Origin: an uncultured Candidatus Saccharibacteria bacterium
Lineage (GTDB): Bacteria; Patescibacteriota; Saccharimonadia; Saccharimonadales; CAIOMD01
DNA length: 64,000 nt
Reading direction: 5' to 3'
NCBI GenBank assembly: GCA_964566135.1
Contig: CAZMHM010000002.1
Location: 66,309-130,308 of the forward strand
Positions 2,448-46,400 of the stretch are shown here, piece by piece (the first letter of the stretch is position 1; each line of letters opens with the position of its first letter). A model generated the notes under the pieces. The model searched no databases. It saw only the letters and a program-made list of their open reading frames with translations, and had not been told where the DNA came from. The position numbers and the translations under genes are program-made.

Positions 2448-3904
2448 TACACCCCCAGTTGTTTTTTGATGAGTTCTTGGACTTTAGCTGGGTTAGCTCG
2501 GCCTTGGCTTAGCTTCATAACTTGCCCAACCAAAAAACCAATCGCTTTCATTTCACCAGCTCGCACATCATCGGCGGCTTTTTCATTTTCAGTCAGTACC
2601 TGCGTGACAATCATAACTAGTTCACCTTCGTCTGATACCTGCAGCAAATTTTTATCTTGTGCAAGCTTTTCGGGGTCAGAATTTTTTACTACAACTTCTG
2701 GTAATAGTTCTTTAGCTGCCGTAGAGCTTAGGCTATTCGCATCAACCATACTTGCCAATTTTACGAGTTGTTCAAGGCTATCAGCTACCTGCGCCCAAGT
2801 TAGCTGTTGTTCTGCAACGAGCCGCTGTAGCTCGCCAAGACACCAGTTGGCGATAGTTTTGGCAGCTTTGTCATCATGTGCTTCGGTTGTGTAGCGAATA
2901 ATCTCCGCTAGCTCTGGTTCTTCCAAAATCGTATTAATTTGTGAATTATCTAACCCAAATGCTGCAAACTTTTCACGTAAGACTGTGGGCAGCAGTGGCA
3001 TTGTTTCGGCAATAGTTGCGACTAATGATTTATCAATGCTGATTGGCGGAATATCTGGATCTGGAAAATAGCGATAATCGTGGGCGTCTTCTTTTGTTCG
3101 CTGGCTAAATGTTGCCTGCTTGGCATCATCCCAACCACGAGTTTCTTGTACAATCTTTTCACCTTTTTCGAGCAACGCAATCTGCCGTTTAACTTCGTAT
3201 TCAACAGCCTTTTCAACACTCTTAAAGCTATTGAGATTCTTTGTCTCGCTCCGCGTCCCGAGCACATCTTTATCTGCACTAACGCTCACATTAACGTCAA
3301 AACGCATATTACCGTGGTATAAATCCGCCTCTGAAACATCAGCATATTTCATTAGTAAGTACAATTCGTGGGCGTATGCCTTTGCTTCTGCGGCACTATG
3401 CATATCTGCTTCGGATACGATTTCGAGCAGTGGCGTGCCGGCACGGTTTAAATCAACTAACGAATAATCTTCGCCTGCGGGGTGTGTACTTTTACCGGCG
3501 TCTGCCTCGAGATGGGCACGCGTAATGCGAACAGTTACTGTGCTTCCATCATCGAGCGGTGCGTCCACGACGCCAACGCCAACAACTGGCCGTTCAAACT
3601 GTGTAATTTGATACCCTAGTGGTAAATCTGGGTAAAAATAATGCTTACGATCAAAATGACTGATCTCAGCAATTTCGGCTCGTAGCGCCAGACCTGCGCG
3701 AATCGCTAGGGTCACTGCTTCGCCATTAAGTACTGGTAATGTACCGGGTAAACCAACACACAACGGGCTAATCAATGTGTTTGGCTCTGCGTCACGGGCA
3801 TCATTATCAATGCCGGCGAACAACTTGGTTTTAGTTTTAAGCTGCACATGGCATTCGATACCAATTGTTGGATAGTATTTGCCGTTAAGTAGATACTTGT
3901 CCAT
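2447..3904 (-). CDS. gatB: Asp/Glu-tRNA(Asn/Gln) amidotransferase subunit B
   Basis: Full-length GatB-like sequence (YYPTIGIECHVQL..., C-terminal YqeY-like tail). Confidence 0.95.
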   Translation of the reverse strand: MDKYLLNGKYYPTIGIECHVQLKTKTKLFAGIDNDARDAEPNTLISPLCVGLPGTLPVLNGEAVTLAIRAGLALRAEIAEISHFDRKHYFYPDLPLGYQITQFERPVVGVGVVDAPLDDGSTVTVRITRAHLEADAGKSTHPAGEDYSLVDLNRAGTPLLEIVSEADMHSAAEAKAYAHELYLLMKYADVSEADLYHGNMRFDVNVSVSADKDVLGTRSETKNLNSFKSVEKAVEYEVKRQIALLEKGEKIVQETRGWDDAKQATFSQRTKEDAHDYRYFPDPDIPPISIDKSLVATIAETMPLLPTVLREKFAAFGLDNSQINTILEEPELAEIIRYTTEAHDDKAAKTIANWCLGELQRLVAEQQLTWAQVADSLEQLVKLASMVDANSLSSTAAKELLPEVVVKNSDPEKLAQDKNLLQVSDEGELVMIVTQVLTENEKAADDVRAGEMKAIGFLVGQVMKLSQGRANPAKVQELIKKQLGV

Positions 3905-4311
3905 TACAACACTCCCAAGTCTTTAAAGGTTTTGTAATAGCCTTGCAAGGCTACTTTCATCTCTTTTTCGGATGGTTCGTGCAATGTTTCGTGGACAATT
4001 TTGTTGCGTAATTTGTGAGCTTTCCAAACTTCATCTTTATGCTGCAACTTTGCTTTTGCGGCAACGAGCCGTTCAGCCATCGTATTGCCATAATAACCAA
4101 GACACTTTAAGGCTTCGTCAAGAAGTTTATCAGCGTGAATAATGCTCATGGGTTGCGTTTTTTTATCCTTAAACAGTAGCATGACGTCATTCCACTCGTT
4201 TTTGAAATGGGTTTTGTCAATACCACGAGCTGGGGTGCGATTTGTCAAACTAATAATGACAAGGATGACTACCGACAGAACAATAATCATGATGATAGTC
4301 GTTATGCTCAT
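3904..4311 (-). CDS. membrane-anchored small protein with C-terminal HEPN-like (Rx4H, DUF86/HepT-like LRNKIVHET) motif
   Basis: N-terminal TM helix (IIMIIVLSVVILVIISL); C-terminal KAHKLRNKIVHETLHE resembles HepT RNxxxHxY motif; start/stop overlap gatA and gatB. Confidence 0.55.
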   Translation of the reverse strand: MSITTIIMIIVLSVVILVIISLTNRTPARGIDKTHFKNEWNDVMLLFKDKKTQPMSIIHADKLLDEALKCLGYYGNTMAERLVAAKAKLQHKDEVWKAHKLRNKIVHETLHEPSEKEMKVALQGYYKTFKDLGVL

Positions 4312-6069: not shown

Positions 6070-8040
6070 TTACAACTTAGCTTTGATGCTCTGAATTAAA
6101 TCACGTAAATCCGCTGCTTTTTCAAATTCGAGATTAGCCGCGGCTAAGTCCATTTGTGCAGTTAAGTCCGCTATAAGCGTGCCATATTCATCTTTCGGAA
6201 TCTTATCAAGATTGAGCTTAGCAGTTTTAGCTTCCTTGCTTTCTGCCCCGACTACCGAACGCAAACTTTCATCAATATTTTTTAAGATTCCAACAGGGGT
6301 AATATCGTGCTTTGCGTTATATGATTCTTGAATTGCTCTACGACGATTCGTTTCGCCAATTGCGCGTTGCATACTGCCTGTTTCGTGGTCGGCATACATA
6401 ATTACTGTGCCTTCAACATGGCGTGCGGCGCGGCCAATAGTCTGGATTAGTGCTGGTTCGCTGCGCAAGAAGCCTTCTTTGTCGGCATCTAAAATTGCAA
6501 CAAGGCTTACTTCGGGCAAATCAAGACCTTCACGAAGCAAGTTAATGCCCACAAGAACATCGTAAATACCAAGTCGCAAGTCACGCAAAATATCAGTACG
6601 TTCTAAAGTATCAACATCGCTGTGGAGATATTGCACTTTTATACCAAGTTCTTCGAGATATTCAGTTAAATCTTCTGACATTCGTTTTGTTAGTGTCGTA
6701 ACAAGCACACGCTGATGTTTTTCAATTCGAATACGGATTTCCGCAATCAAATCATCGACCTGGCCGTCAACGGGCCGCACTTCAATCTTAGGGTCAATGA
6801 GCCCTGTTGGACGGATAACTTGCTCGATTGGCGTCCCCGAATGACTCAGCTCGTATTCTGCCGGTGTTGCAGAAACATAGATAGCTTGGTTAATATGGCG
6901 TTCAAACTCAGTGAATGTCAGGGGGCGATTATCGAGCGCGCTCGGCAAGCGAAAACCGTGTTCAACAAGCACCTCCTTACGGGCGCGGTCACCGTTATAC
7001 ATGCCACGTACTTGCGGCAAGGTCATATGGCTTTCATCTACCATCAACAAATAATCATCAGGAAAATAATCCATGAGGGTAGCAGGTTGATCGCCTGGTT
7101 CACGGTTTGTAAGGTATCGGCTATAGTTTTCGATTCCTTTTACAAAGCCAGTTTCCTCGAGCATTTCTAAATCGAACTTGGTACGTTGCTCAAGCCTTTG
7201 CGCCTCTAGTAGCTGTGAGTTCTTTTTGTAATAGACTAGTCGTTCTTCGAGCTCTTGCTGAATTTTTCCAAGCGCTGCTTTAAGCTTCTCGTGAGGCGTC
7301 ACATAGTGGCTACCGGGGAATATCGTATATTCATTAATGGTTGCCTCAATTTCGCCGGTTAAGGGATTAATGCGCGTAATGCGATCAATTTCGTCACCAA
7401 AAAACTCAATACGGTAGGCCACTTCTTCGCCGGTTGGGAAAACATCCACTACATCACCACGCACCCGAAACGTACTACGAGTAAAGGCAACGTCATTGCG
7501 TTTATATTGAATATCCGTAAGCTGCCGCAAAAATTTATCACGCACACGACGCTCGCCAGTTTTAACAGTGATAGCCATCGCACCATAATCATCAACTGAG
7601 CCAATGCCATAAATACAGCTCACACTTGCAACTATGATGACATCTCGTCGGCTTAGTAGCGCACTGGTAGCAGCATGACGCAAGCGATCGATTTCTTCAT
7701 TGATTTGGCTGTCTTTTTCGATATATGTGTCGCTACGAGCAATATAGGCTTCTGGCTGATAGTAGTCAAAGTAACTAACAAAGTAATGAACCTCGTTATC
7801 AGGAAAAAAGTTTTTGAATTCGTTATATAGCTGAGCGGCCAAAGTTTTGTTATGTGCCAAAATAAGCGTCGGCTTTTGTGTCGCCTGAATAACATTGGCC
7901 ATCGTAAAGGTTTTACCCGAGCCAGTGACGCCTAAGAGCACCTGCTCTTTTTGCCCATTAGTAATACCGGCAACCAATGCCTTGATTGCTTTTGGCTGAT
8001 CGCCAGTTGGCTGATATTCGGTCTTAAGTGAAAACTGCAT
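6070..8040 (-). CDS. uvrB: excinuclease ABC subunit B
   Basis: GVTGSGKTF Walker A, helicase motifs, C-terminal UVR coiled-coil ([14 protein letters not shown]). Confidence 0.95.
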
Positions 8041-8134
8041 CTCTACTAGTATAGATTATTGACTAAATAATAGTAATATGGCACTATAAACATCTGTCCT
8101 TCCCCCTTCCCCAGGCAAGAGAAAGGAACCGGAC

Positions 8135-8587
8135 ATGACAGCTCTGCAGGACGACATCTTCAGGCCTGACCCTCCCACCACGGAGAGCATGGGCAAGTCC
8201 AAGAACAAGGACAAGCCCAAGCGCGTCTGGCCCAAGAGGCTCTTCCAGATCATCGGCATCGCAGCGCTCATCGCAGCGGTCGTCTGGCTGACCACCGGCC
8301 TCATCACCAGCAAGACCGTCACCCTCGAGAAGGCCATCACCAACGCCGGCTTCGAGAACGTCACGATCTACCCCGCTGACACGAGCAAGCAGACGGTTGC
8401 CTCGGCCACCGCGAGCTACGGCAGCTGCCAGCTGCGATTCATCATCGCAACGCAGGAGCTGTCCGGCGGTCAGGGAACCATCGAACGCCTCGCCATCGTG
8501 GAAAGCGACGGCAAGCTCGTGTTCGATGCCACACCCACCGAGCTGAGCAGCATGGAGCGCTACGCTCCGTGCACGGCCAGCAGCTAG
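8135..8587 (+). CDS. hypothetical single-pass membrane protein encoded in high-GC island
   Basis: RBS GAAAGGAA 8 nt upstream of ATG; TM helix LFQIIGIAALIAAVVWLTTGLI; extreme GC3 bias; no recognisable family. Confidence 0.7.
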   Translation: MTALQDDIFRPDPPTTESMGKSKNKDKPKRVWPKRLFQIIGIAALIAAVVWLTTGLITSKTVTLEKAITNAGFENVTIYPADTSKQTVASATASYGSCQLRFIIATQELSGGQGTIERLAIVESDGKLVFDATPTELSSMERYAPCTASS

Positions 8588-8592
8588 CCCGA

Positions 8593-8640
8593 GTACGGGC
8601 CCCGACCATCACTGGTCCGGGGCCCGTACGGGGCTCTTTT
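8593..8640 (+). terminator. GC-rich rho-independent terminator
   Basis: GTACGGGCCCCGACC/GGTCCGGGGCCCGTAC ~15-bp stem followed by CTCTTTTC. Confidence 0.6.
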
Positions 8641-8643
8641 CAT

Positions 8644-9351
8644 TTATGGGTTAGGATTCACGTAGGTTCCGCCGTCTTGCGTACAGTAATAACTAGCACC
8701 CTGTGGTATATCTAGATCATTAGTCACGGTACATGGCGGAAGCACATTACCGCTAAAAGCAATTGCCCAAGTAGCGCCAAATTTCTTCAAAATTGCTGTA
8801 TCCGTCCCATTGCAGGTTCGCTTAACAACTGCATAGGCATCATAAATCACGCTTTTTAACTCATATCCAACGTCGCTGCTAATCTTTCCGTTCACCGTAC
8901 ATTGTTTTTTAAACGTTTTATAGTCATCCATGATAAATTTCTGTAAATCGACCGGTGCACTCTGAAAATTGATGATTTCGCTAGCTCGTTGTTTTTTCGT
9001 ACCAATAATACGAATTAAGTCTGCCTCTGTTTTTGCAGCGATAAACATACCATTAGCCGTCTTTGCACTAGCTTGTAATGATTTATTTGTTTCGAGTATC
9101 GATTGTTTTACAACTATCCACGTTATAGCGACCGCAATGCTAAGCGTAGCTACAACCACCATTACAAACACTGAACGCCTAACACGTATTCGGGCATATT
9201 TTTTTATATGCACTTTTGGCTTGGATTTTTTTACTTTCTTTTTGGGTGCAGGTTTAGGTACGCTAACTTTTTTTGGACGCGCAACATAAACTTCTTCGGG
9301 TTGTAGCCGTACTTTTTTTCTATTGTTCTTGGCGCTTTTTCTAGTGGCCAT
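8644..9351 (-). CDS. hypothetical membrane protein with Lys-rich N-terminus and Cys-containing extracytoplasmic domain
   Basis: Basic N-terminus (PKPAPKKKVKKSKPKVHIKK), one TM helix, 6 Cys in C-terminal domain. Confidence 0.7.
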   Translation of the reverse strand: MATRKSAKNNRKKVRLQPEEVYVARPKKVSVPKPAPKKKVKKSKPKVHIKKYARIRVRRSVFVMVVVATLSIAVAITWIVVKQSILETNKSLQASAKTANGMFIAAKTEADLIRIIGTKKQRASEIINFQSAPVDLQKFIMDDYKTFKKQCTVNGKISSDVGYELKSVIYDAYAVVKRTCNGTDTAILKKFGATWAIAFSGNVLPPCTVTNDLDIPQGASYYCTQDGGTYVNPNP

Positions 9352-30518: not shown

Positions 30519-30697
30519 CGTCGCCTATTAGCATAAGGGACGAGCGATTATTACTCAAATACAATTATCGTTTCCGCAGGCCACAAGCTTTGTGGACTAT
30601 GGGAACGGGCAGGTGTTATCAACCTGAGATGGGCGGTATTTCCGCCCAAATGCCTCCGCAAGGTAGGCTGCCAAGTTCCTGAAGAGACGTAGCAGGG

Positions 30698-30817
30698 CTA
30701 CTTCTTCTCCATCGCCTTACGAGCAAGCCCGACCGGACAGCTGCAGTAGTGTTCACCACCGAAGCCAGCCAGAAGGACATACTTGCCCGTGTCATTGCAC
30801 TTTCCGCACTTACCCAT
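30698..30817 (-). CDS. candidate 39-aa CxxC...CxC zinc-ribbon-like small protein (not in ORF track)
   Basis: Perfect SD AAGGAGGTG 6 nt upstream of ATG; MGKCGKCNDTGKYVLLAGFGGEHYCSCPVGLARKAMEKK. Confidence 0.35.
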   Translation of the reverse strand: MGKCGKCNDTGKYVLLAGFGGEHYCSCPVGLARKAMEKK

Positions 30818-31054
30818 GCTTTTCACCTCCTTCGAGGTGTAGTAGGAATCTTGCGAAAGAACGTGCAGGTACCCGGAGGAATCTCACCTCCGGGCAGGTC
30901 GCGAGCCGTTTACCACGGCTACAAGCGAACCTGGCGCAATTCGTGCTGTCTCGTCTGGGCGGGGGCTTTGACGAAACACTTGCGCTACCTTTTCGGCAAG
31001 CGATATCAGCAACCAGCATCTTCCCCGATGCTGACTGCAACTTGCCGAGACTTT

Positions 31055-31133: not shown

Positions 31134-31244
31134 CTTGGGCTACAAACCCAAGTTGGCGGTGGCCGGTCGCCACCTACTACAACCATCCTTTTGTTCCGCT
31201 CGGGTAAATCCACCGCACGAAACTAGGGAACAACCGGCCACCAG

Positions 31245-31318
31245 TGGCCCCGACAGGATTTGAACCTGCGACCTCTTGGCTCTTCGCCAAGCGCGCTACC
31301 AAGCTGCGCTACGGGGAC
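31245..31318 (-). tRNA. tRNA-like gene (no encoded CCA); anticodon loop CGAAGAG lacks U33 - identity undetermined/possible pseudo-tRNA
   Basis: Acceptor GTCCCCG/CGGGGCC (one T-C mismatch), D-arm identical to neighbour, T-arm GCAGG-TTCAAAT-CCTGT. Confidence 0.5.
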
Positions 31319-35063: not shown

Positions 35064-35246
35064 ACTTAAGTAAATATTATACGGCTATTTTACCCCTGAC
35101 GCTACCTCTTGACGTATTACTTACATAGTTGTATTGTTTTTTTATCTTTTGGCACCAGCCAAGGGAGCGACCCAAGGGGGGTGGTACCTATCATACGGAA
35201 GCTTGTGCGCTCGTTCTTGCACTACTCCGAAAGGAACGAGCCCGAA

Positions 35247-35579
35247 GTGTCTGTTCTCGGCAAGCTCGAAATCACCGTGCCGAAGCTGGACATGTACGTT
35301 GCCGTACGGCAGCACGGCGGCGAATGCTGTAGCGATAATTGCGAGTCCGCGCTGGGCCACCTCACAGGGGAACCCCAATACGATTCGCAACACGAAAGCA
35401 TCTTCGTCGTCGTCACACCGCTTAGCGAACAGCAGGTTGCTAAGCGCGTCGTTCTCGCAAAACGCTCCAAGTGGGGCATCTGGCGCGCGACTGGCAAGCA
35501 AATCGGCACTACCAAGAAGAAGATCCCCGTGCAACGCGAGGCAGTCGAGGTCGAAAGCCAAGAGCTTTCGACCAACTGA
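35247..35579 (+). CDS. candidate small protein (about 110 aa) in second high-GC island; GTG start
   Basis: GC3 ~72% vs GC1 ~64%; AAAGGAA SD ~10 nt upstream of GTG; strand assignment uncertain because antisense frame is also open. Confidence 0.35.
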   Translation: MSVLGKLEITVPKLDMYVAVRQHGGECCSDNCESALGHLTGEPQYDSQHESIFVVVTPLSEQQVAKRVVLAKRSKWGIWRATGKQIGTTKKKIPVQREAVEVESQELSTN

Positions 35580-35697
35580 TGAGGACAAGGGGGAGCGGCG
35601 TACAAGAGAGTACGCTGCCCCAAAAGCAGTGGTTTCAAATGAAACCGCTCCCCCAAGCCCACCACCCCCTATACACAACGCATGATAGACTATTGGT

Positions 35698-36195
35698 ATG
35701 GCAGTATTTTCATTCGACATAGTTTCAGATTACGACAAAAGTGAACTCAACAACGTTGTTGACCAGGCGCAACGCGAAATAGCGAATCGTTATGATCTAA
35801 AAGGCACAAAAGCCGCACTAGACTGGCTCGACGGCGACAAGAATGCGCTTAAAATTACCGGTGATAATGATTTTCATATCGACGCTATCCTAGATATTGT
35901 CAGAAAAAAGCTAGCAACTCGTGGCCAAAGCCAAAAAACGCTCGATACGTCAAAAGAGGCTACTACCACGAATCTTCAAACTGTCAAAATCGTACCACTC
36001 AAAAAGGGGCTTGACCAAGAAAAAGCAAAAAAAATAACTTCGCTGATTAGAGAACAATTGCCAAAAGTTAAGACACAAATCCAAGGTGACGAAGTACGCG
36101 TGATGAGCCCCAAGAAAGACGACTTACAGGCTGTCATGACCTTACTCAAAAGCCAAGATTTTGACTTCCCTCTCGACTTTACGAATTACCGATAA
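35698..36195 (+). CDS. yajQ: YajQ-family (DUF520) nucleotide-binding protein
   Basis: MAVFSFDIVSDYDKSELNNVVDQAQREIANRYDLKG matches YajQ N-terminus. Confidence 0.85.
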   Translation: MAVFSFDIVSDYDKSELNNVVDQAQREIANRYDLKGTKAALDWLDGDKNALKITGDNDFHIDAILDIVRKKLATRGQSQKTLDTSKEATTTNLQTVKIVPLKKGLDQEKAKKITSLIREQLPKVKTQIQGDEVRVMSPKKDDLQAVMTLLKSQDFDFPLDFTNYR

Positions 36196-45122: not shown

Positions 45123-46226
45123 TTACAAAGTTTTTACAATTTGCTCCCAAGGATACTCAGCATGCCCAAAATGACCATAGGACGCAGTTTGTTGATAAAT
45201 CGGCCTTCGCAACTGAAACGCGGTAATAATTCCCGCCACCGAGCAGTCCAGTAAGTCATCTGCAAAGTTGCGAATAGTTTGTTTTTCGGTTGTTTCGGTG
45301 TTAAACGTTTCAATTTCTTTAATAATCGGCGCTTTGGCTCCAATATAATATGCAAGACAAACCTCGGCACGCTTAGCGAGGCCTGCCGCGACAATGTTTT
45401 TGGCAATGTATCGTGCGGCATACGCTCCAGACCTATCTACTTTACTTGGATCTTTGCCAGAAAATGCACCACCGCCTACTCTTGCTGCACCTCCGTAGGT
45501 GTCAACAACAATCTTTCGTCCCGTAAGACCGACATCGCTTGCTGGGCCAGGCTGGTGCCAAACACCAGTACCATTAATAATGACTTCTTTTGGTAGCGAT
45601 AAACCATAAGCACCAAGCACCGGACTGATAACACATTCTGTTATATCTTTCGTGACTTGTTCTAGCGAGACATCTTCGTTGTGTGGTACAGCAATGGTGA
45701 TATGTTCGGTTTCATACTTGGTGCCATCAAATGCGAGGACTACCTGCGACTTACCGTCGGGACGCAAATAGGGCAATGTAGTAGCTCTGGCTATATCAAT
45801 TGCATGGGTCAACTTATGGGCAACAGTAATTGCTAGGGGAGTAAGTTCTGGGGTCTCATCGGTGGCATAGCCATACATAAGTCCCTGGTCGCCAGCGCCA
45901 CCATCATCAACGCCAACAGCAATTTCAGGAGATTGCTCATGCAGTAAATTAATTACTGGGGATGTGCTACTGAACCCCCACTCGGGATGTACGTACCCCT
46001 CTTTAGCGATTACCGAGCGAGCAATAGCCTCGTAGTCAAGCTGTGCTTTAGCGGTAATTTCCCCGGCAAGTACAATATGATCTTGGGCAAGCAACGTCTC
46101 AGCCGCAACTCGCGAACTTGGGTCAGCTGCAAGCGCCGCGTCTAAAATTGCATCACTAATCTGGTCGGCAAGTTTATCTGGATGCCCTGCACAGACTGAC
46201 TCACTGACAATATATTTTTTTGGCAT
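45123..46226 (-). CDS. metK: S-adenosylmethionine synthetase
   Basis: GHPDK, GGGAFSGKDPSKVDRS motifs; GAAAGG SD. Confidence 0.95.
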   Translation of the reverse strand: MPKKYIVSESVCAGHPDKLADQISDAILDAALAADPSSRVAAETLLAQDHIVLAGEITAKAQLDYEAIARSVIAKEGYVHPEWGFSSTSPVINLLHEQSPEIAVGVDDGGAGDQGLMYGYATDETPELTPLAITVAHKLTHAIDIARATTLPYLRPDGKSQVVLAFDGTKYETEHITIAVPHNEDVSLEQVTKDITECVISPVLGAYGLSLPKEVIINGTGVWHQPGPASDVGLTGRKIVVDTYGGAARVGGGAFSGKDPSKVDRSGAYAARYIAKNIVAAGLAKRAEVCLAYYIGAKAPIIKEIETFNTETTEKQTIRNFADDLLDCSVAGIITAFQLRRPIYQQTASYGHFGHAEYPWEQIVKTL

Positions 46227-46269
46227 AAAAAAACCTTTCATAATGCTCACGCGAGTGCTGCACCTATAA

Positions 46270-46400
46270 AAGGATGAAACATATATCTTTCCGCATACGC
46301 GGACTAGATGGGGCACCGTTCCGATTAAGGGGTGGTTGCCGGCGGGTCATAGAGCTAGTTCTCTCACCGCACTCACGATATCAAATTGTTAACTGCTAAA
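46270..46400 (-). promoter_or_regulatory. candidate SAM riboswitch (SAM-I/IV clan) in metK leader
   Basis: Minus-strand leader contains GCCGGCAACC...GGUGCCCC core resembling SAM-I/IV; about 200-nt 5' UTR. Confidence 0.4.

Follow-up and report, generated by a model that had tools for sequence, protein, structure and literature searches.

A uvrB-linked gene for a predicted membrane-anchored protein keeps a GC-rich composition across related low-GC genomes

In a 64,000-nucleotide (nt) stretch of DNA from an uncultured Candidatus Saccharibacteria bacterium (contig CAZMHM010000002.1; the whole stretch is hereafter called the window), a small gene at 8135-8587 on the plus strand, next to uvrB, departs sharply from its surroundings in base composition. 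An earlier note, made from the sequence of the window, read it as a recently acquired foreign gene with a high-GC actinobacterial host as a plausible donor. We found instead that the gene lies in the same position beside uvrB in related low-GC genomes, that it has retained a high GC content at third codon positions (GC3) at a divergence where the synonymous sites of uvrB are saturated, that its coding sequence (CDS) is predicted to fold more tightly than synonymous permutations of itself, and that it ends in an extreme terminator hairpin. We are confident that the gene was not recently acquired by horizontal transfer. The best overall explanation, to which we assign a probability of about 0.5, is that it is a native, lineage-restricted surface-protein gene under selection for a GC-rich, stable mRNA.

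A GC-rich block that coincides with one transcription unit

Between 8095 and 8640 the GC content is 0.634, compared with 0.443 for the whole window. The open reading frame (ORF) responsible is

8135-8587, plus strand: CDS of 150 amino acids (aa), GC3 0.887

with GC contents of 0.51 and 0.49 at first and second codon positions. Its GC3 stands at z = 15.6 relative to the 41 window ORFs of at least 200 aa (mean 0.390, standard deviation 0.032, maximum 0.445). This three-base periodicity (0.51/0.49/0.89), together with a ratio of nonsynonymous to synonymous divergence (dN/dS) below 1, indicates that the ORF is coding, and no other protein-coding gene of the window is GC-rich. Relative to the genome, the codon usage of the ORF is inverted in every amino-acid family: NNY codons have a C/(C+T) of 0.91 in the gene versus 0.37, and NNR codons have a G/(G+A) of 0.82 versus 0.39. 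C exceeds G at third positions, and the favoured codons include AAG, GAG, CAG, ATC, ACC and GCC. The block of about 545 bp and the actinobacterial-like codon signature reported in the earlier note were therefore both reproduced, as were its own ribosome-binding site, GC-rich terminator and location (see below).

The borders of the block are abrupt. GC content is 0.26 at 8025-8075, rises to about 0.6 from about 8100 and returns to background past about 8640, so that the block runs from about 45 nt 5' of the ATG, directly after the -10 box, to the end of the terminator hairpin. Its extent matches that of the inferred transcription unit, the 5' untranslated region (UTR) and the terminator being GC-rich as well, and there is no consistent spill-over into the flanks, as judged from GC3 in the 50 codons at the start of uvrB and in the final 50 of the downstream gene. 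The same junctions were recovered in four independent metagenome assemblies (L001-L004; related loci are designated here by L numbers), indicating that the block is not an assembly chimera. Other genes on the plus strand of the window have a normal GC3 (0.38-0.44), which shows that strand or orientation is not the cause of the GC-richness. No flanking direct repeat, integrase or tRNA was found at the block borders. No second copy of the block was detected by blastn against the window, and a role as the target of a diversity-generating retroelement or as a copy of a paralogous template was rejected on this ground. Translational selection was rejected as well: the genes for GAPDH and aldolase, which are likely highly expressed, have a GC3 of just 0.35-0.38.

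Conserved position and undecayed GC3 across saturated lineages

The gene sits between two genes of the opposite strand:

6070-8040, minus strand: uvrB, the divergent left neighbour (Pfam UvrB_inter, UvrB, Helicase_C and UVR)
8644-9351, minus strand: gene for a 235-aa membrane protein, the convergent right neighbour, without a family match; present in some lineages, not in L009 or L016

It is divergent from an adjoining uvrB in 10 of the 11 distinct lineages with a readable upstream flank, all in low-GC genomes; the contig of L013 is cut at the start codon, and its left flank was not counted. The exception is L006, a short, low-coverage contig with another left neighbour, where the breakpoint falls immediately 5' of the -35 box and the promoter is kept. 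Long contigs share a wider array, in which gatB, a 135-aa ORF, gatA and gatC are followed at some distance by uvrB on the minus strand, the GC-rich gene on the plus strand, the 235-aa gene where present, and then, on the minus strand, an LDcluster4 gene, a 419-aa ORF, PfkB, aldolase and a split transketolase.

UvrB identity among these genomes ranges from 79% to 100%. A readable uvrB is available for nine lineages, and in eight of them the proportion of its synonymous sites that differ from the window is 0.76-0.87, which amounts to saturation; the exception is L005 (0.10). The gene has nevertheless kept a GC3 of 0.89 in the window and in L005, 0.84 in L006, 0.78 in L007, 0.75 in L008, 0.66 in L012, 0.85 in L013, 0.73 in L014, 0.64 in L016, 0.79 in L019 and 0.68 in L020, with 0.46 in L009-L011, compared with 0.29-0.50 in neighbouring genes and an overall GC content of 0.40-0.48 in the remainder of each contig. 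At such synonymous saturation a foreign signature should have decayed, yet GC3 remains at 0.64-0.89 in all but one lineage; on a two-state relaxation argument, the relic of an old transfer would have drifted to the genomic GC3 of about 0.39.

The silent sites themselves have not stood still. At codons whose amino acid is shared by two lineages, the third base differs in 37-67% of cases. Exchanges between G and C are the largest or joint-largest silent class in about half of the pairs with strongly GC-rich members. Between the window and L007, for instance, silent changes comprise 12 within S (G or C), 6 from S to W (A or T), 5 from W to S and 2 within W. Silent sites thus turned over and yet stayed G or C, indicating that the GC-richness is maintained and is not a relic. 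GC3 is nearly the same in conserved and variable codon columns (0.77 versus 0.75), which suggests that the pressure acts on nucleotides over the whole gene. Hypermutation was rejected, since in the close pair formed by the window and L005 synonymous divergence (dS) in the gene does not exceed that of its flank (0.06 versus 0.11 in uvrB). Taken together, GC content is very probably under active maintenance in this gene.

A small family found mainly in the uvrB slot

A word-seeded search of 5.8 billion clustered proteins returned four sequences, and eight further, more distant members of 126-154 aa came from an exhaustive HMMER profile scan over 1.84 billion representatives, along with one match of 2,947 aa that is probably spurious. 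A second iteration with an 11-sequence profile yielded no new member, and a metagenome scan with the family profile gave one extra locus, identical to L020. The family recovered in this way comprises only about 12 sequences of 126-154 aa with one architecture. No homologue was found in phage records, plasmids or IMG/VR by tblastn, nor in species-representative genomes by a pattern scan whose patterns are specific to the close subfamily, and a scan of genome collections through the 235-aa neighbour, which seeks the synteny independently of the gene, found no locus. Across the protein, phage, plasmid and viral searches, no high-GC homologue or high-GC context emerged. The actinobacterial donor and the recent foreign origin put forward in the earlier note are thus contradicted on the very grounds that it named as decisive, the gene being conserved at this position across low-GC relatives with no high-GC homologues recovered by these searches.

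Two other genes of the shared array deserve mention. The 135-aa membrane ORF (window 3904-4311, minus strand) is wedged between gatB and gatA, overlaps both by 1-4 nt, has no family match and is conserved in every lineage, L009, L016, L019 and L020 included. Between gatC and uvrB, L009 (4609-5487, minus strand) and L016 (4323-5426, minus strand) carry a gene for a secreted repeat protein with a signal peptide, SIMPL-like in L016, whose GC3 is 0.56-0.57 against a background of 0.33.

Promoter, 5' UTR and terminator

The elements of the transcription unit in the window, all on the plus strand, are as follows:

8059-8064, plus strand: -35-like box TTGACT in AT-rich DNA, predicted from conservation
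8079-8087, plus strand: TG-extended -10-like box TGgCACTAT, with a predicted transcription start at about 8093-8095
8094-8134, plus strand: C-rich 5' UTR, where the GC-rich block starts, with CTTCCCC twice (8099-8105 and 8106-8112)
8588-8632, plus strand: terminator hairpin of 45 nt, about 20 bp with a GGGCCC core, free energy (dG) about -41 kcal/mol
8635-8645, plus strand: T-rich tract TCTTTTCATTT 3' of the hairpin, overlapping the end of the convergent 235-aa gene (stop codon 8644-8646)

The two promoter boxes of the window are separated by 17 nt. Of 11 upstream regions that could be read, 9 contain TTGAC(T/A), placed 16-18 nt 5' of a -10-like box that is often TG-extended, and L006 and L007 have TTGCTT in its place; at equal spacing, other lineages carry TATAAT, TACTAT, TATTAT, TAAGAT or TAAAAT as the -10 box. 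The window promoter was not called by a simple scan because its -10 box matches the consensus at 3 of 6 positions only, and the call accordingly draws on this conservation.

The minus strand holds a TATACT box (AGTATA on the plus strand, 8048-8053) that lies 7 nt before the ATG of uvrB, with no Shine-Dalgarno (SD) sequence, suggesting that the uvrB mRNA is probably leaderless. The box is conserved, recurring in the region that corresponds to window 8041-8064 in L005, L007, L008, L012, L014, L019 and L020. A gap of 5 nt separates this -10 box of uvrB from the -35 box of its GC-rich neighbour, and the two form back-to-back divergent promoters.

Within the 5' UTR, an SD-like AAGGA (8123-8127) is located 7 nt 5' of the ATG. 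Some 10-14 nt 5' of the SD, the otherwise variable UTR carries the heptamer CTTCCCC, which is unchanged in 9 of 10 lineages; apart from the window, where it is duplicated, it is present in the 5' UTRs of L005, L007, L008, L009, L012, L014, L016 and L020. It was rejected as a regulon motif, as no enrichment was seen elsewhere in the window. Of the 9 minimum-free-energy folds, 7 contain a hairpin around the SD with the stem GUCC...GGAC (in L012, GGUAUC...GAUACC), and it is better than shuffled sequences in only one of the nine lineages (L007). Pairing of the SD/AUG region does not exceed that in 51 other genes (p = 0.78), and we therefore claim no translational repression.

The 3' end has the form of an intrinsic (Rho-independent) terminator, with a GC-rich hairpin directly after the stop codon followed by TCTTTTCATTT. 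The window's hairpin is the most stable 60-nt fold on either strand of the entire 64 kb (-42.6, versus a mean of -10.2 and a standard deviation of 4.4). Hairpins of 17-25 bp and -37 to -54 kcal/mol follow the gene in all 10 lineages examined, with a GGGCCC core in most and with stem sequences that are lineage-specific, and a T-run stands directly 3' of the stem in 9 of them (L014 being the exception).

Excess folding of the coding sequence

The minimum free energy of the CDS was compared with that of synonymous-codon permutations, which leave the protein and the codon usage unchanged. The resulting z values were -2.8, -1.5, -0.6, -4.3, -3.5, -1.2, -1.5, -3.4, -5.7, -5.7 and -2.4, thus negative in 11 of 11 lineages with a mean of -3.0. 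Control segments of 450 nt from other window genes (n = 32) gave z = -0.30±1.09, significantly different from the values of the gene (Mann-Whitney p = 2e-5). Compared with dinucleotide shuffles, the whole transcript of the window reached z = -5.9. No Rfam match was obtained.

A small, fast-evolving protein with a predicted membrane anchor

The product was dissected as follows:

8135-8239, plus strand: residues 1-35, N-terminal tail rich in K, R and P
8240-8308, plus strand: residues 36-58, predicted transmembrane (TM) helix
8318-8584, plus strand: residues 62-150, ectodomain
8426-8428 and 8570-8572, plus strand: invariant cysteines Cys98 and Cys146

This agrees with the single-pass membrane protein with a small Cys-containing domain described in the earlier note, the helix being a prediction. 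The architecture of a K/R/P-rich tail, one TM helix and a C-terminal domain of about 85 residues is kept throughout the family, in which G72, S90, C98, G126 and C146 are invariant. By the positive-inside rule, the C-terminal domain would lie outside the cell in a type-II (N-in/C-out) topology, and the two invariant cysteines probably form a disulfide. AlphaFold2 modelled the ectodomain as a helix, five strands and two helices with a predicted local distance difference test score (pLDDT) of 93.6 and a predicted template modelling score (pTM) of 0.82. Neither Pfam nor NCBIfam gave a match for the 150-aa product, and no significant fold match was obtained for the ectodomain, PepSY-like folds included.

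Protein identity within the family is 25-59% where UvrB identity is 79-97% (for L009 and L016, 35% versus 97%), so that the product diverges 10-30 times faster than UvrB. The dN/dS ratio is about 0.4-0.65 for the gene and at most 0.02 for uvrB. Such fast evolution agrees with exposure at the surface and with either weak constraint or diversifying selection, and in the ectodomain it is consistent with a cell-surface interface to a host, phage or the environment. L006 and L007, compared at L006 1-290 and L007 405-470, are nearly identical in DNA save for a TM-coding segment of about 95 nt that is about 50% different, a pattern that suggests allelic mosaicism and may reflect either mosaic recombination or an artefact of the short, low-coverage contig.

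Weighing the explanations

Confinement of the high GC content to the transcript, its maintenance over time, a codon arrangement that adds folding, and the 3' hairpins together make selection on the mRNA the simplest single cause. On this explanation the gene would be native, inherited vertically and restricted to the lineage, and its product a small membrane-anchored N-in/C-out surface protein with a two-Cys ectodomain. It would be expressed from a monocistronic unit composed of a TTGAC-type promoter, a C-rich 5' UTR, the ORF and an exceptionally strong hairpin terminator. Selection at silent sites would favour a GC-rich, heavily base-paired, nuclease-resistant and long-lived mRNA, and the giant 3' hairpin would block 3' exonucleases. 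That stability or structure of the mRNA is the selected trait, a proposal drawn from the folding calculations, is put forward tentatively, at somewhat less than even odds.

Several observations weigh against it. The proposed stability of the mRNA derives from folding calculations. Base pairs within the CDS that are common to the lineages did not exceed the shuffled null, meaning that selection would have to act on generic foldedness and not on one specific structure, and an SD-sequestering 5' hairpin that would repress translation was rejected as not significant. L009-L011 show a modest GC3 excess only (0.46 versus 0.33), yet with a folding z of -3.5. The raised GC3 (0.56-0.57) of the secreted repeat protein gene in L009 and L016 hints that surface-protein genes are generally GC-raised there, favouring a cause in recombination or in GC-biased gene conversion (gBGC). 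All related loci were retrieved through the gene itself, which places relatives lacking the gene outside the sample. Finally, the gene could have originated de novo or by an ancient transfer.

Transfer can be envisaged at two time depths. A recent acquisition from a high-GC actinobacterial host would account for the actinobacterial-looking codon usage (GC3 0.887, C3 > G3) and for a sharply bounded block with a GC-rich terminator. We consider it very improbable, given that no homologue was found outside the syntenic slot in 5.8 billion and 1.84 billion proteins or in phage, plasmid and viral sets, that genomes saturated at the synonymous sites of uvrB carry the gene at the same place, that no integrase, flanking repeat or tRNA marks the borders, and that the promoter is AT-rich, native-looking and conserved. 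An ancient transfer, in which the ancestor of the clade received the gene from an unsampled high-GC donor, would explain, at birth, both the extreme GC3 and the style of the GC-rich terminator, and would suit an orphan family without detectable ancestry. Such a transfer addresses origin only, and another force would be needed for maintenance: the persistence of GC3 past more than one full synonymous turnover and the excess folding due to codon arrangement are left unexplained, and no donor homologue was found. We regard it as unlikely, although it deserves to be kept in mind. Equally faint as the recent acquisition is the idea that the gene, or its stable mRNA, was built for use in or by a high-GC partner cell, as a host-adapted expression cassette kept in a low-GC genome (for example, an actinobacterial host might translate nucleic acid that an epibiont delivers to it); its support is the codon pattern.

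Other forces could raise GC3 from within. If the gene were a surface-antigen locus exchanged between strains at a recombination hot spot, gBGC would drive its silent sites towards G and C through biased repair, in keeping with the protein diverging 10-30 times faster than UvrB (35% versus 97% identity between L009 and L016), with the mosaic TM segment of about 95 nt in L006 and L007 and the different left neighbour of L006, and with the other GC3-elevated secreted protein gene in L009 and L016. However, the block ends where the transcript ends, and the adjacent gene ends, necessarily part of any homologous exchange, show no consistent rise in GC3. Effects of gBGC reported in bacteria amount to a few percent, not the +0.3 to +0.5 seen here, and gBGC predicts neither folding in excess of codon shuffles nor giant terminators; we rate it as improbable. 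Selection at the level of codons and tRNAs, by which genome-rare G/C-ending codons would tune or gate translation (by slowing elongation for membrane insertion, or by tying expression to particular tRNAs), is in line with a usage inverted in every amino-acid family. One G34 tRNA reads both NNY codons, so that where this holds the C-over-T preference of 0.91 cannot act via different tRNAs; moreover, the untranslated 5' UTR and terminator are GC-rich too, and the GAPDH and aldolase genes are unshifted (GC3 0.35-0.38). We hold this to be a poor prospect. Third positions might also be constrained by a hidden gene, overlapping or antisense, or by a structured RNA with a dual function. In 4 of 11 lineages (the window, L006, L013 and L019) the antisense frame in phase with the gene is open throughout, an expected by-product of the avoidance of A at third positions; in the other seven it is interrupted (36-107 codons), and with neither an Rfam match nor conserved base pairs this idea merits hardly any credence.

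Other features of the window

Two GC-rich regions of the window lack a clear coding signal. The region at 30561-31050 (GC up to 0.615 in 200 nt) lies beside tRNA-Arg(TCG) and tRNA-Leu(AAG), contains ORFs that overlap in several frames with none dominant, and forms local folds of -30 kcal/mol per 60 nt; it has no Rfam match even at E<=0.1 and is probably an unrecognised structured RNA. The region at 35100-35700, flanked by pheS and a YajQ-like gene, has a GC content of about 0.58-0.60; none of its reading frames dominates, and it includes a local fold of -34 kcal/mol at 35591-35650. It gave no Rfam match and no transfer-messenger RNA by ARAGORN, and is a candidate for a divergent RNase P RNA, 6S RNA or other non-coding RNA (ncRNA). 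The tRNA-Leu at 31244-31318 (minus strand) has the anticodon AAG and is thus an A34 tRNA, a type unusual in bacteria outside tRNA-Arg(ACG). An S-adenosylmethionine (SAM)-I riboswitch (46280-46384, minus strand; Rfam RF00162, 52 bits) was identified upstream of a metK-like gene (45123-46316). With gatCAB, a split transketolase, phosphoketolase plus acetate kinase and numerous orphan membrane proteins, the gene content of the window would suit a bacterium with a reduced genome.

Relation to known systems and significance

Long-lived mRNAs of envelope proteins are known from lpp and ompA of E. coli, and 3' hairpins acting as positive retroregulators from the cry genes of Bacillus thuringiensis. 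The GC-rich gene resembles them in being a monocistronic unit for a small envelope protein with a near-consensus -35 box, a structured mRNA and a very strong 3' stem-loop, a likeness seen here at the level of sequence and folding calculations. It differs from them in that codon usage is inverted over the whole CDS (GC3 up to 0.89 against a genomic 0.39) and in that the protein is unrelated. Like the mRNAs of type I toxins (of the hok, tisB and aapA1 type), it encodes a membrane protein, has excess structure and ends in a strong terminator; unlike them, it specifies 126-154 aa with a folded ectodomain of about 85 aa instead of a hydrophobic peptide of less than 60 aa, SD occlusion is unsupported and no antisense RNA was identified here. 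With GC-rich islands of structural RNA (rRNA, tRNA and ncRNA), of which the window probably has two non-coding examples, it shares a local GC content that may be due to selection on RNA folding, whereas it is protein-coding, has a three-base periodicity and lacks a single conserved structure. As in compositional islands produced by horizontal transfer, one gene with its own regulatory signals shows a sharp discontinuity in GC content and codon usage; in contrast to such islands, this gene keeps the same slot across saturated lineages without amelioration and comes without donor homologues, mobility genes or repeats. The predicted product recalls the PepSY-type proteins YpmB and YpeB, in which a TM anchor at the N-terminus likewise precedes a helix packed against a small antiparallel sheet.

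In the literature consulted we came across no account of a GC-rich coding gene maintained in comparable fashion in a low-GC bacterium, which is not proof of novelty. The gene serves as a counter-example for the detection of horizontal transfer from composition, in that the most foreign-looking gene of the window appears to be ancestral and native. If our explanation is true, selection on mRNA folding or stability has inverted codon usage (GC3 about 0.9 in a 0.39 genome) and has held it so through saturating divergence. Among bacteria the gene would then be an unusually strong instance of selection on synonymous sites, and one open to direct test. For the organisms themselves, an orphan, predicted surface-anchored protein in reduced-genome bacteria is a plausible candidate for a host-, phage- or environment-facing determinant.

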